A stretch of DNA of 64,000 nt from an uncultured archaeon (GTDB lineage Archaea; Iainarchaeota; Iainarchaeia; Iainarchaeales; CAZILS01), in the NCBI GenBank assembly GCA_964540145.1, contig CAZILS010000003.1, positions 41,799 to 105,798 on the forward strand, given 5' to 3'. Shown here in pieces: positions 2,597 to 43,199 of the stretch (the stretch's first letter is position 1; every line of letters begins with the position of its first letter). The position numbers and the translations under genes are program-made. The notes under the pieces are model-generated. The model was not told the origin of the DNA. It did no database searches and saw only the letters and a list, made by a program, of their open reading frames with translations.

Positions 2597-2775
2597 AATA
2601 TTCCCGTCCCACCGAACGAAGTGAGGGGGACACATATCGGTACAAGCCGGACCTGTCGGCTGGTTGCATTCGCAGAAAGCTGTGATGCTGAAACTTCTTG
2701 GGAAGCTCTGAATATTCCCGTCCCACCGAACGAAGTGAGGGGGACACATATCGGTACCGGCTGGACCTGTCAGCC
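2597..2775 (+). repeat. Two 65-nt structured direct repeats (2597-2661, 2711-2775) with a 49-nt spacer
   Basis: First 47 nt identical; 60/65 identical overall; the differences preserve a hairpin. Confidence 0.9.
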
Positions 2776-23786: not shown

Positions 23787-23943
23787 AACCCCTCCCCAAA
23801 AGCCCGGATTAAGCCTTGCTTAACCGGCGCCTATCGGGTTTTGCCCAATCCGGGTTTGCGAATGTCCCGTGCCCGGCACGGATTGCCCTTCGCCGGTCGC
23901 AATTATTAATAAGCCCAAGCCCCCTAATTAATTATGCTTTGTT

Positions 23944-37535: not shown

Positions 37536-37774
37536 CCAAACCGGCTATATATTAGTTTTATTTAAATATAAGGATTAGCTTAAGGTTATATGAAGGTTAG
37601 GGAACCCCCGAAAAGCCCATAGGTGCAACATATATAAACCTTTAGAGCGCAAATAATTATGGATAGCATGGACAGAAGGGAGTGTCTTCCAGTACAGCAA
37701 TTTTTCTTTTAGATTTGTATACTCCCCGGAATGCGATTTTAATTCTTTTGGAAGAAATCTTTCTAATCCGTCAT

Positions 37775-37849
37775 GGGACATTGGTGTAGCCTGGCCTAGC
37801 ATTGTGGCTTTGGGAGCCTCCGACCCCGGTTCAAATCCGGGATGTCCCA
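37775..37849 (+). tRNA. tRNA-Pro(TGG)
   Basis: GGGACAT/ATGTCCC; GTGGC-TTTGGGA-GCCTC (one U-U mismatch); TTCAAAT. Confidence 0.92.
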
Positions 37850-37927
37850 ATCCGTCGCGCCCGGATGGTGCGTCGCCTATACTCTGCCCCCTTGGGCATT
37901 ATATAGGCGTGGCGGCTTCGCCGCATT
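37850..37927 (+). ncRNA. Putative structured tRNA-Pro trailer element, copy 1
   Basis: Three hairpins; 29/35 identity at the 5' end to 38774..38856 with pairing-preserving changes. Confidence 0.6.
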
Positions 37928-37943
37928 TTGGGAAGTGGTCTGC

Positions 37944-38615
37944 ATGAAGAAGGACTGGGATAACATATACAGGGAACACGGCAAGGTGCAGAAAGGGGTT
38001 TGGCCTTTCCTAAGCAGGAACCTTTTCCGCATCAAAAAGGGCGGCAATGTGCTTGACCTTGGCTGCGGGACAGGGCGGCATCTTCTCTACCTCGCGAAGA
38101 GGGGCTACCTCGCAACAGGGATGGATTTGTCTGTTTCGGGTCTTGAGCTTGCGGATTCGCACCTAAGGAAAAACGGCATTAACTGCGTTACCCTCGTGAA
38201 GGGCGACATGCGGAAGCTGCCCTTCCGGGACAAAACCTTCGATGCGGTTGTTTCGTGCTGGGTCATACACCACTCCACCCTGAAGGACTTCGGGAAAACG
38301 CTTCGTGAGGCCTGTAGGGTTCTCAAGAACAACGGGGTGTTCCTTGCGAATGTCCAATCGACCTCCCATTTTTGGTATGGGAAAGGCGAGGAGCTTGAGC
38401 CCAACACTTTCAGGGGCGAGGGCGAGGAGTACGATGTCCCGCACCATTATTTCGGCAGGGAGGAACTCACGGAGGGGCTGGTGAATGCGGGATTTTCAAT
38501 AGAAAAGATGCGCCACGCAAAGAGGATGACCAACACCTCGAAAACGACGGACTTAAAAATAATAAAGCGGCAAGGTATAATGGCGCACTGGGATTTCATT
38601 GCGGTTAAGAAATAG
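37944..38615 (+). CDS. Class I SAM-dependent methyltransferase
   Basis: VLDLGCGTGRH, GMDLS, GDMRKLPF..FDAV, RVLKNNG. Confidence 0.9.
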   Translation: MKKDWDNIYREHGKVQKGVWPFLSRNLFRIKKGGNVLDLGCGTGRHLLYLAKRGYLATGMDLSVSGLELADSHLRKNGINCVTLVKGDMRKLPFRDKTFDAVVSCWVIHHSTLKDFGKTLREACRVLKNNGVFLANVQSTSHFWYGKGEELEPNTFRGEGEEYDVPHHYFGREELTEGLVNAGFSIEKMRHAKRMTNTSKTTDLKIIKRQGIMAHWDFIAVKK

Positions 38616-38698
38616 TTCCATCCGGAGGATGGAAGTTCCATTGAACCCCTCCCTGCGGAGGGGTGAAATGGGACGGCGGTAAACGAGCCTTCGTTTAG

Positions 38699-38773
38699 GG
38701 GGGGGTAGTCTAGCCTGGACCAGGACTCTACCTTGGGGTGGTAGCAACCCGAGTTCAAATCTCGGCCCTCCCA
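38699..38773 (+). tRNA. tRNA-Pro(GGG)
   Basis: GGGGGGG/CCCTCCC; CTACC-TTGGGGT-GGTAG; CCGAG-TTCAAAT-CTCGG. Confidence 0.93.
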
Positions 38774-38856
38774 ATCTGTCACGCCCGGATAATGCGGGGC
38801 CTATACTCCGCTTTTGGCACAGTATAGGCCGAGCGTCCCCTTTCAGGGGACGCATT
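38774..38856 (+). ncRNA. Putative structured tRNA-Pro trailer element, copy 2
   Basis: Same three-hairpin layout as 37850..37927. Confidence 0.6.
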
Positions 38857-38908
38857 CACATTGGCTGGCGCACCCTTTTATAGGGGAAAAGCCATAGAGG
38901 ATACGAAA

Positions 38909-39706
38909 ATGAAAATAGGGTTCATAGGTTCGGGAAAGATGGCGGAAGCCCTGATTCGAAGCTTCCTGGACAGCGGCACCGCCGTAAAGGAAGAGATTTT
39001 CATTTCCGACAAATCCAAAGAAAGGCTCAACTTCCTTTCAAAGGAGCTAGGGGTTAACACAGCCTCAACTAATATTGAAGCTGTTGAGAGCGCCGACACA
39101 ATTTTCCTCTCTGTCAAGCCCCGGGATATGGAAACTGTGCTGAAGGAAATTTCAGGGAATGCAAAGGGAAAGCTGTTCATTTCAATAGCTGCGGGCATAA
39201 CGCTTTCATTCATTGAAAACTATTTGGAAAATGCGAAGGTTGTGAGGGTAATGCCCAACCTGAACATTCTGGTCGGGGAAGGGATTTCCTGTTACTCCTT
39301 GGGGAAGGGGTGCGGCAGAGATGATGAAAGTTCCGTTGGCAACCTGCTTGCAGTTGTTGGGAAAGTGATTAAGGTTGAGGAGAAGAAGCTTGATGCTGTT
39401 ACCGCCCTTTCCGGGTCGGGGCCTGCCTTCTATGCCCTGGTTATGGATGCATTTGCCAAGGCAGGCATTGAACAGGGCCTTAACAGCGAGGAAGCCTACC
39501 TCCTCGCGGAGCAGACCGCACTTGGAACAGCCAAGCTCCTCATGGTCCGGAAAATGGGGACAATGGAGCTTATCGATGCGGTTGCCTCTAAGGGAGGAAC
39601 GACCGAGGCAGGCCTTAACGCGCTTGACCAAACCGTTTTGAGAAAGGAAATTTCCAAGGCTGTTGCGGCAGCGAAGAAAAGAGCGGGGGAGCTCGGCAAT
39701 GGCTAG
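38909..39706 (+). CDS. proC: Pyrroline-5-carboxylate reductase
   Basis: IGFIGSGKM, SVKP, RVMPN, TALSGSGPA, SKGGTT. Confidence 0.95.
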   Translation: MKIGFIGSGKMAEALIRSFLDSGTAVKEEIFISDKSKERLNFLSKELGVNTASTNIEAVESADTIFLSVKPRDMETVLKEISGNAKGKLFISIAAGITLSFIENYLENAKVVRVMPNLNILVGEGISCYSLGKGCGRDDESSVGNLLAVVGKVIKVEEKKLDAVTALSGSGPAFYALVMDAFAKAGIEQGLNSEEAYLLAEQTALGTAKLLMVRKMGTMELIDAVASKGGTTEAGLNALDQTVLRKEISKAVAAAKKRAGELGNG

Positions 39707-41738: not shown

Positions 41739-43199
41739 ATGGCCGAGGAAAAAATAACCTTCAACATCGACAAGGAAAAGGATTTTTCCAACTGGTTCAC
41801 GGAAATAATAAAGGCTGCGGAGCTCGCGGATATCCGGTACAATGTAAAAGGCTTCCTTGTTTTTAGGGAGTGGTCGGTTTGGTCGATGGAGGCGATGTAC
41901 TCCCTTTATGAGAAGGCACTGCAGAGGAAAGGGCACAGGCCGATGTGGTTCCCTGCAGTAATCCCGGAAAGCAATTTCACGCTGGAGGGAGAGCATGTCG
42001 AGGGCTTCACCCCCGAGGTGTTCTGGATAACGGAGCACGGTGCGGGAGAAAAATTCGAGGAGAAGCTCGCTCTTCGGCCGACCTCTGAAACCGCAATGTA
42101 CAGGATGTACTCAACATGGATACGCTCCTACAACGATTTGCCGTTCAAGGCATACCAGCGCGCGCAGGTATGGAGATATGAGACAAAGGCCACAAGGCCT
42201 TTCCTAAGGGGCAGGGAATTCCATTGGATAGAGGCCCACGATGTTTTCGCAACTAAAGAAGATGCGGAGGCGCAGGTTCGCGAGGACATGCAGACTGCGG
42301 AGGAAATTATGCACCAAAAGTTCGGCATACCCTTCATATTTTTCGAGAGGCCCCAATGGGACAAGTTTCCGGGGGCAGAAAACACATATGGGGCAGACAC
42401 AATAACTCCGGGAGGGAGGGTTATCCAGCAGCCCTCAACACACCTGCTCGGGCAGAACTTCTCAAAGCCGTTCAATGTGAAGTTCGTTGACAAGGACGGG
42501 AAGGAGAAATTTGCGTATATCACATGCTATGGCCCCTGTATTTCGAGAATGTTTGCGAGTGTCATGGCAACCCACGGGGACAGCAAAGGCCTGAGGTTCC
42601 CGTTTGAGATTGCGCCCATGCAGGCCATCCTTGTTCCAATCGCTTTGAACAAGACAAAGAAGGGTTTGGAGAAGGCGAATGAACTGAAGGAAAAGCTTCT
42701 GGACGCGGGTTACAGGGCGGCGGTTGATGCAAGGGATTTAATGCCCGGAGAAAAGTTCTACCACTGGGAGATGAAGGGAGTTCCGATAAGGCTGGAGATC
42801 GGCCCAAAAGAGGTGGAGAAGAAACAGCTTACGGTTTACAGGCGCGACCTCGGCAAAAAGGAAACCATACCTGAGAAGAGCCTCCTTTCCTACATCGGGA
42901 AGGCCTCTGCCGAGATAACCGAAAACCTAAGGAATGAAGCCGACAAAAAATTCAAGAATGTCATTAAAGACGCAAAGACAAAGGCCGAGGTGAAGGAAAT
43001 CGTTTCAGGGAAGGGAATAGCGAGAATAAACTTCTGCACAACTTCACTTGAGGGGAAGGCCTGCGCCGAAACCATAGAGAAGGAAATCGGGGCCAAAGTC
43101 CGAGGCACAAGGATAGACAAGAAGGAAAAGGCGAATGGAAAATGTCTCTTCTGCGGAAAGAAGGCGAATGTTGTCGCATATGTGGCCAAGGAATATTAG
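41739..43199 (+). CDS. proS: Prolyl-tRNA synthetase (archaeal/eukaryal type)
   Basis: ALRPTSET, PFLRGREFHW.E.H, WEMKGVPIR.EIGP, C-terminal Zn domain ending in Y. Confidence 0.97.
   Translation: MAEEKITFNIDKEKDFSNWFTEIIKAAELADIRYNVKGFLVFREWSVWSMEAMYSLYEKALQRKGHRPMWFPAVIPESNFTLEGEHVEGFTPEVFWITEHGAGEKFEEKLALRPTSETAMYRMYSTWIRSYNDLPFKAYQRAQVWRYETKATRPFLRGREFHWIEAHDVFATKEDAEAQVREDMQTAEEIMHQKFGIPFIFFERPQWDKFPGAENTYGADTITPGGRVIQQPSTHLLGQNFSKPFNVKFVDKDGKEKFAYITCYGPCISRMFASVMATHGDSKGLRFPFEIAPMQAILVPIALNKTKKGLEKANELKEKLLDAGYRAAVDARDLMPGEKFYHWEMKGVPIRLEIGPKEVEKKQLTVYRRDLGKKETIPEKSLLSYIGKASAEITENLRNEADKKFKNVIKDAKTKAEVKEIVSGKGIARINFCTTSLEGKACAETIEKEIGAKVRGTRIDKKEKANGKCLFCGKKANVVAYVAKEY

Follow-up and report, generated by a model that had tools for sequence, protein, structure and literature searches.

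The DNA considered here is a stretch of 64,000 nt (hereafter the window) from an uncultured archaeon of the Iainarchaeota, positions 41,799 to 105,798 of contig CAZILS010000003.1, within an assembly (GCA_964540145.1) of 994 kb in 21 contigs that is 68% complete. Two of its tRNA-Pro genes are followed, without a single intervening nucleotide, by related structured motifs of about 80 nt, which are two copies of a family of small elements dispersed through this genome and a number of its relatives. The genes and their trailer copies are arranged as follows.

37775..37849, plus strand: tRNA-Pro(UGG) gene, no encoded CCA (Rfam tRNA model, 49.5 bits; ARAGORN, 37774-37850)
37850..37929, plus strand: element copy 1, sense, the 3′ trailer of tRNA-Pro(UGG) (sequence, core model R1, fold)
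38699..38773, plus strand: tRNA-Pro(GGG) gene, no encoded CCA (Rfam tRNA model, 52.3 bits; ARAGORN)
38774..38854, plus strand: element copy 2, sense, the 3′ trailer of tRNA-Pro(GGG) (sequence, core model R1, fold)

Structurally, each trailer opens with a hairpin of 5 bp and a 7-nt loop (P1), followed by a 3-nt linker and GCG, a long hairpin (P2), and a third hairpin (P3). The original prediction, made from the sequence of this locus, had described both trailers as beginning at the position after the discriminator of their tRNA-Pro, as being identical at 29 of their first 35 nt, and as differing by a C-G to G-C swap at the base of P2; the sequence, ARAGORN and the Rfam tRNA model agree on the first point, alignment reproduced the second, and the swap is present. 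In copy 1, the core (37850-37872) comprises the P1 hairpin (37850-37854 with 37862-37866, read from the sequence), GGU and GCG; P2 pairs 37874-37881 with 37902-37909 and P3 pairs 37912-37916 with 37920-37924, after which comes TTTT at 37926-37929. The core of copy 2 (38774-38796) has a P1 of 38774-38778 with 38786-38790, including one G-U pair, and is followed by P2 (38798-38807 with 38821-38830) and P3 (38833-38840 with 38846-38853). A pseudoknot is proposed in both, between loop 37858-37860 and 37870-37872 in copy 1, and between loop 38782-38784 and 38794-38796 in copy 2. Searching the genome with R1, a covariance model built on the 23-nt core and used at a cut-off of E ≤0.01, recovered copy 1 at E 1.8e-5 (32.9 bits) and copy 2 at E 8.7e-4 (26.6 bits). 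Both fold far better than expected (z −4.0 and −4.1, with 0 of 200 dinucleotide shuffles as good), as do their reverse strands (z −4.3 and −5.2), and the minimum-free-energy fold of copy 1 takes a different register that the wider family does not support.

Across the family, the 23-nt core consists of the 5-bp stem, a 7-nt loop (consensus UCACGUC), the 3-nt linker, and RCG, which pairs with loop positions 4-6. Beyond the core comes the variable P2 and, often, one more hairpin, set within a GCUCG...CUCGCA frame. Nearly all copies have a hairpin 3′ of the core although their sequences there differ widely, and the 45 nt in that position fold with a mean z of −2.5 (76 copies). At the first two positions of the P1 stem the bases vary yet stay paired (AU, CG, GC, UA). 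Over 79 aligned copies, two of them added by hand, which reduce to 41 distinct rows, 97.6% of the cells pair and seven of the eight pairs have changed on both sides, values that none of 500 shuffles reached on any measure and that vanish when the partners are slid. In the distinct rows, the helix between loop and linker is 98.4% paired, with pair 9:23 being CG in 38 and GC in 2, and pair 11:21 being UA in 25, CG in 12, UG in 3 and another combination in 1. Pair 11:21 was not encoded in the model that collected the 78 full-length R1 hits, and among those it is UA in 51, CG in 23, UG in 3, UU in 1 and CA in none. Loop bases pairing with a downstream strand, and covarying with it, are the defining features of an H-type RNA pseudoknot. 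This covariation supports a pseudoknot, new here, between the loop of the first hairpin and the linker, and the sequences are consistent with a helix of loop 4-6 and RCG that either coexists with P1 or alternates with it, in RNA or in single-stranded DNA. The original prediction had instead placed an outer helix between TGCG and a terminal CGCA, competing with P3 in a switch-like arrangement. That helix does not covary in the wider family, where copies with A at the variable position carry CGCA in 21 cases and CGTA in 1; the position covaries with the P1 loop instead, and the proposed switch helix is not supported.

Comparing the trailers of all 35 tRNA genes called by ARAGORN in this genome, we found the same motif at discriminator+1 of tRNA-Gly(GCC), whereas the trailer of the third tRNA-Pro (CGG, contig C5) is unrelated and lacks the element. 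Several tRNA genes of this genome hold introns of 93-120 nt, and the element forms the long introns of tRNA-Arg(CCT), tRNA-Gly(GCC) and tRNA-Thr(UGU), with P1 and the linker first and then P2 and P3; the intron of tRNA-Tyr is filled by the element in antisense. Further copies lie at C3:24999, away from any called tRNA, and beside tRNA-Leu(UAG), where the element adjoins an orphan duplicate of that tRNA's 3′ end. R1 matched seven times in this genome, both window copies among them. A loosened scan of the genome returned 10 matches, against 14 in a reversed-genome control, and we therefore accepted only matches with downstream hairpins. Two variant copies lie elsewhere in the window.

2597..2660, minus strand: variant element copy, antisense, 7 nt downstream of tRNA-Thr(CGT) (2517-2590) (R1 at 15.3 bits and E 0.15, a weak match; 64-nt repeat family D1)
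2711..2775, minus strand: second variant element copy, antisense, after tRNA-Thr(CGT) (repeat family D1; sequence)

These variants are 94% identical over 64 nt. The core of the first (2639-2661, minus strand) has the loop ACAGGUC and a linker ending in ACC, so that in the variants the loop change is matched by the linker change and a further pair of the pseudoknot helix is switched from C-G to G-C; the second carries a compensating C-G to U-A change in P1. Separately, the 155-nt spacer between tRNA-Ile(GAU) and tRNA-Gln(UUG) (23788-23942) is GC-rich, has many hairpins, and holds a GCCTATC-like segment resembling P2 of this genome's copies, with no core match.

Phylogenetically, the family is restricted to a subset of Iainarchaeota-type DPANN genomes. 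A 21-nt core pattern, allowing ≤2 mismatches, was present in 10 of 41 related genomes (about 62 listed matches, versus 1 in the reversed control), and R1 matched in 23 of the 151 genomes of the order, leaving 128 without a match at E ≤0.01; the richest genomes hold 37, 18, 16, 12 and 12 matches, and the core is nearly invariant over at least 12 families of the order. No additional families came from a sample spanning the phylum, in which none of the 11 genomes of families f33-f37 had an R1 match. Among the matches listed from a pattern scan of the whole collection, single chance matches in GC-rich bacteria dominated, and the archaeal records that we noticed were Candidatus Iainarchaeum and one other archaeon; 21 matches in viral contigs look like chance as well, with outer P1 pairs that form in 5 of the 21 and no hairpin seen after them. 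As had been anticipated, the element corresponds to no Rfam family: between 37600 and 39000, searched at E ≤10, tRNA alone scored above gathering and five other matches (E 0.06-8.4) fell far below it, and nine further loci bearing copies gave no match at gathering score, which leaves the motif outside the riboswitches, small RNAs (sRNAs) and ribozymes of that database at these loci. Compared by eye with consensus features, hepatitis delta virus-like, hatchet and pistol ribozymes, the K-turn or C/D box, a tRNA-like arm, and the integron attC site did not fit. We found no published account of the element in the main texts of the literature on archaeal, DPANN and Iainarchaeota tRNA introns, transposition and trailers (supplements not covered).

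To describe where the element sits, 78 copies with flanks were surveyed, drawn from loci chosen around matches and leaving out four copies from this genome. Of these, 28 are directly attached to tRNA features: 12 follow a tRNA 3′ end in sense, mostly at a distance of ≤2 nt; 6 are in antisense with P1 against a tRNA 5′ end; 5 with P1 against an antisense tRNA fragment running from T-loop to 3′ end; and 5 inside tRNA introns (4 antisense, 1 sense). Another 7 stand in some different relation to a tRNA located within 200 nt, and 43 have none within 60 nt. The family occurs at tRNA genes for Gly, Arg, Thr, Tyr, Leu, Val, Lys, Ala, Met, Ile, Cys, Asp and Gln, as well as at protein-gene ends. Gene orientation was read from open frames in short flanks, a crude procedure that gave no call for 22 of the 50 copies not joined to a tRNA; 16 of the 50 come after a long co-directional open frame, with the stop codon −2 to +3 nt from P1 in nine. 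Whatever the arrangement, the junction is tight at the P1 end and loose at the other; left flanks share no common motif, and T-runs come after many copies. Folding was more stable in sense for 28 copies and in antisense for 46 (Wilcoxon p 0.04), with 132 G-U pairs in the sense folds versus 83 in the antisense folds.

A few individual loci stand out. At L056 (G048:C22:400-2046), two 165-nt direct copies of the element region, 724 nt apart, bracket an open reading frame (ORF) of 112 aa and a small ORF on the opposite strand, resembling a small element-flanked cassette. The 144-nt intron of a tRNA-Ala(CGC) at L006 (G040:C44) has a degenerate sense core at its start and an antisense core at its end, and its ends are complementary over about 20 nt. 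A tRNA-Arg(CCT) at L044 (G011:C1) has a 68-nt intron with a degenerate P1 and a P2 like that genome's other copies, while an antisense copy also abuts the tRNA 5′ end, an arrangement that suggests within-genome homogenisation or re-insertion.

Evidence for mobility comes from orthologous sites, from flanking repeats and from the likeness of copies within genomes. Three orthologous sites were compared among members of a single genus (70-75% DNA identity). At the first (L068), one genome has an insert of about 80 nt with a 20-nt direct repeat on both sides, whereas in two congeners the site is uninterrupted and holds a single copy of those 20 nt. At the second (L062), the insert is flanked by a 46-nt repeat, two congeners are empty with a single copy, another has both repeat copies without the insert, and yet another a longer variant insert. 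The third insert is missing in three congeners, one of which has a copy in the adjacent tRNA-Ala trailer. More generally, when direct repeats were sought that end 0-3 nt from P1 and recur after the element, 11 of 77 copies exceeded the control's 99th percentile, orphan tRNA 3′ ends being counted among such repeats and 2 of the 11 being tandem tRNA paralogues. Judged by the P2 region, 54 of 77 copies have their nearest neighbour within their own genome, compared with 14% expected. At the window locus itself, the closest relatives of the tRNA-Pro(UGG) gene (93% and 92% identical) have T-run trailers, with tRNA-Pro(GGG) about 25 nt downstream and no element, and the tRNA-Pro(UGG) trailers of relatives are mostly plain and T-rich, with a clear copy in one other genome only.

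Thus, we consider it likely that both window motifs are copies of a lineage-restricted family of mobile insertions that are small (about 50-115 nt), gene-less and rich in hairpins. The window copies have no detectable target duplication; their own mobility is inferred from family membership and the element-free relatives. The suggestion in the original prediction of a miniature inverted-repeat transposable element (MITE) targeting tRNA-Pro ends was right as to a small mobile insertion and wrong as to its specificity, since the element is not confined to tRNA-Pro, shows no terminal inverted repeats and has duplications of varying length. In our reading, such elements would spread within genomes and persist where RNA is discarded, the tolerated sites being tRNA 3′ trailers, 5′ leaders, bulge-helix-bulge (BHB) introns, and the space just after stop codons. 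The window copies would be co-transcribed with their tRNA-Pro and cut off at the discriminator by tRNase Z, copy 1 would probably end the tRNA-Pro(UGG) transcript through P3 and TTTT, and neither would sense proline; copies in introns would be removed by EndA and RtcB. This genome encodes RNase Z (above the family cut-off), EndA and RtcB.

Several points weigh against this reading. Leaving the tRNA paralogues out of account, target duplications were detected in just 9 of the 77 copies and range in length from 12 to 46 nt, a range that no transposase class known to us produces; the window copies have no detectable duplication. The richest genome, 97% complete and holding 37 matches, has no match to a Y1 transposase, a TnpB domain, RVT_1 or Cas1. 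As for the covariation, the copies are related by descent, so that the shuffle tests overstate independence, and P1 pairing was built into the collecting model. The strong conservation of the core over families of the order and its tight abutment to gene ends would fit a host function too.

As to a mobilising enzyme, five element-bearing genomes were searched. The Y1 transposase (PF01797) matched in G041 and G094 and not in G000, G015 or G011; the TnpB domain (PF07282) was absent from G015, G094 and G000; and RVT_1 was absent from four of the five. Tyrosine recombinases are present everywhere and are therefore uninformative as the mobiliser. Outside the window, G000 has an RVT_1 match (E 1.2e-38) directly upstream of a Cas1 match (E 1.4e-84) at C8:11836-13358, which looks like an RT-associated CRISPR adaptation module.

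The intron copies permit a more specific proposal. The window copies come after a complete tRNA and are not BHB introns, which are set between exons and have at their splice sites a motif with 3-nt bulges and a 4-bp central helix; read by eye, the intron copies of tRNA-Arg(CCT) and tRNA-Gly(GCC) have this motif. In tRNA-Arg(CCT) it comprises CUCC/GGAG, the bulges UA|C and AG|A, and the inner helix GCCG/CGGC, and in tRNA-Gly(GCC) it comprises UUGC/GCGA and the inner helix AGCC/GGUU. In both introns, again by eye, the 5′ strand of P1 forms the inner helix by pairing with a further copy of its partner located distally, and P1 and the splice-competent fold are therefore mutually exclusive. We tentatively propose, as a possibility that is less likely than not to hold in full, that this is an active element without protein genes that gives rise to a spliceable intron when it inserts into an anticodon loop, the first hairpin strand re-pairing with the downstream copy of its partner. 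If this were true, a route by which archaea gain tRNA introns could be observed directly in this family, and the conserved pseudoknot at the 5′ end would give a mobilisation system its hold on the element, perhaps a system in which tRNase Z, EndA and RtcB set the ends of the element.

Downstream of copy 1 lies a protein gene on which the insert may bear.

37944-38615: class I S-adenosylmethionine-dependent methyltransferase gene, likely start 37944 (Pfam Methyltransf_11, E 1.6e-26)

The 3′ strand of copy 1 P2 contains TTATATA (37899-37905), and because this sits 39 nt before the ATG at 37944, we guess that the insert may have been co-opted as a promoter of the methyltransferase gene.

Of the alternatives, the one that survives best, and that we still judge unlikely, holds that the element is a functional RNA module of the host, whose pseudoknot and hairpins are kept for RNA metabolism and whose spread is secondary. 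It might mark a boundary or processing site near mature RNA ends, shield RNA from exonucleases or act as a terminator hairpin, and it overlaps with the mobile-insertion reading, as bacterial repetitive extragenic palindromic (REP) elements do. The near invariance of the core in at least 12 families fits such a role, as do the distance of P1 from tRNA ends (0-2 nt in most tRNA-joined copies) and from stop codons (−2 to +3 nt in 9 of 50 others), the T-runs after many copies, and the canonical BHB of the Arg and Gly introns, whose inner helix draws on the P1 5′ strand. A host module is harder to reconcile with copies in both orientations relative to the host transcript, with the lack of a clear sense-strand preference in stability (28 copies more stable in sense versus 46 in antisense), with orthologous sites that are empty in congeners and closest tRNA-Pro relatives that lack the element, and with the 128 of 151 genomes of the order that gave no match at E ≤0.01.

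A second alternative, to which we attach little probability, is that the copies are gene-less scars of tyrosine-integrase elements in tRNA genes, in which the repeats would represent attL/attR identity blocks and the hairpins what is left of attP. Integrases are reportedly directed to the anticodon loop, the T-loop and the 3′ end as their classic sublocations, and in 5 of 78 copies P1 borders on an orphan tRNA 3′ end that begins at the T-loop; some element-rich genomes also encode tyrosine recombinases beyond the XerA-like one, in one case about 630 nt from a copy. However, flanking repeats of unrelated sequence occur at protein-gene junctions too, and each target would need a matching attP; the inserts span only 50-115 nt, the window copies have no repeat, and this genome, at 68% completeness, has one recombinase match.

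Retroposition of tRNA-trailer RNA, in the manner of short interspersed nuclear elements (SINEs), is improbable. By this account an RNA released by tRNase Z and starting at P1 is copied into DNA at staggered nicks, which would explain the master-like copies at discriminator+1, the always complete 5′ end with its precise junction and the loose 3′ end, and the variable duplications of 12 to 46 nt. Target-primed insertion usually gives the opposite pattern of ends; RVT_1 is missing in four of the five genomes, no 5′-truncated copies were seen, and the delimited insert ends have no A- or U-rich 3′ tail.

The gene that follows copy 2 underlies the reading with which the motif was first described.

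38909-39706: proC, downstream of copy 2

That the motif is a regulator acting in cis, or a processed sRNA, dedicated to tRNA-Pro and the pro genes is now a most improbable reading: the element does occur behind two of the three tRNA-Pro genes, proC does follow copy 2, and the two window copies are each other's closest or joint-closest relatives in the P2 region, but the reading fails because many copies lie at unrelated loci, an outcome that the original prediction had itself named as counting against it, with the family attached to tRNA genes of many other specificities and to protein-gene ends instead of one pathway or amino acid, with the third tRNA-Pro free of the element, and with the proposed switch helix lacking covariation. 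Nor does the association with proline genes belong to the element. Relatives keep tRNA-Pro beside proC or proS with no element between, and proC follows tRNA-Pro(GGG) here and, element-free, in one relative; in several relatives the gene after tRNA-Pro(GGG) is one that we take, from its recognised N-terminal sequence, to be that of prolyl-tRNA synthetase (proS). Because relatives have the linkage without the element, the linkage of tRNA-Pro(GGG) to proline genes (at L092, L095, L103 and L107, and at 38699-39706 in the window) belongs to the tRNA genes, and the conserved neighbourhood would be independent of the element. For annotation, the case illustrates that structured, covarying motifs of this kind resemble riboswitches or sRNAs and are easily mistaken for gene-specific regulators.

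Among known systems, REP elements, bacterial interspersed mosaic elements (BIMEs), REPINs and the Rickettsia palindromic elements are short, gene-less, hairpin-forming modular repeats that occur in tens of copies at tolerated positions and are alike within a genome. The family described here shares with REP/REPIN and Rickettsia palindromic elements the short hairpin repeats, the absence of genes and the likeness of copies within a genome. Unlike REP/REPIN systems, which have a cognate REP-associated tyrosine transposase (RAYT) in the genome, it occurs without a Y1 (RAYT-type) transposase in three of five element-bearing genomes, the richest included (PF01797 absent from G000, G015 and G011), and it further differs from REP-type palindromes in its asymmetric, conserved 5′ core with a probable pseudoknot, in target duplications of 12-46 nt, and in that some copies are tRNA introns. 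With MITEs it has in common small, non-autonomous insertions, target-site duplications and presence/absence polymorphism; unlike MITEs, the delimited copies show no terminal inverted repeats, duplication length is variable instead of fixed, and no parent insertion sequence (IS) was found. IS200/IS605 derivatives and omega-RNAs go with TnpA/TnpB and with insertion 3′ of a fixed tetra- or pentanucleotide that leaves no target duplication; such a derivation is not supported here, with the TnpB domain missing in the three genomes named above, left flanks that share no motif, and target duplications present. The comparison with SINE-like retroposons is mixed: the duplications are variable, RVT_1 is absent from four of the five genomes, and neither a tail nor 5′ truncation was seen.

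The closest parallels concern archaeal tRNA introns. In the Thermoproteales, near-identical introns with BHB junctions occur in different tRNA genes, and their spread, thought to take place at the DNA level, is described as mechanistically unexplained (Fujishima et al. 2010, as summarised in the review PMC4090602). Related intervening sequences in different tRNA genes and BHB exon-intron junctions are shared with our family, which, set against that summary, differs in being found beyond tRNA genes' exons as well (as trailers, as leaders and behind protein genes), in occurring in both orientations, in having target duplications and empty sites, and in its DPANN host; the window copies, moreover, are trailers and not introns. 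In Caldiarchaeum, a 1.8-kb recombinase-encoding mobile element has been linked to tRNA gene disruption and intron gain (Sugahara et al. 2012, PMC3293823), and there, as in our data, intron gain and stray tRNA fragments are tied to a mobile element at a tRNA locus; ours has no coding content and is shorter than 120 nt. For Asgard archaea, a 2026 preprint leaves the route of intron arrival open. The spread of the present element may show how archaeal tRNA introns arise, since a single family is the source of intron bodies, of tRNA trailers and leaders, and of free-standing insertions whose targets are duplicated and whose sites can be empty in related genomes; the question of intron origin thereby becomes testable by comparative genomics of closely related DPANN populations. 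What deserves attention is the element's double life as intron and insertion, combined with its covarying 5′ core.

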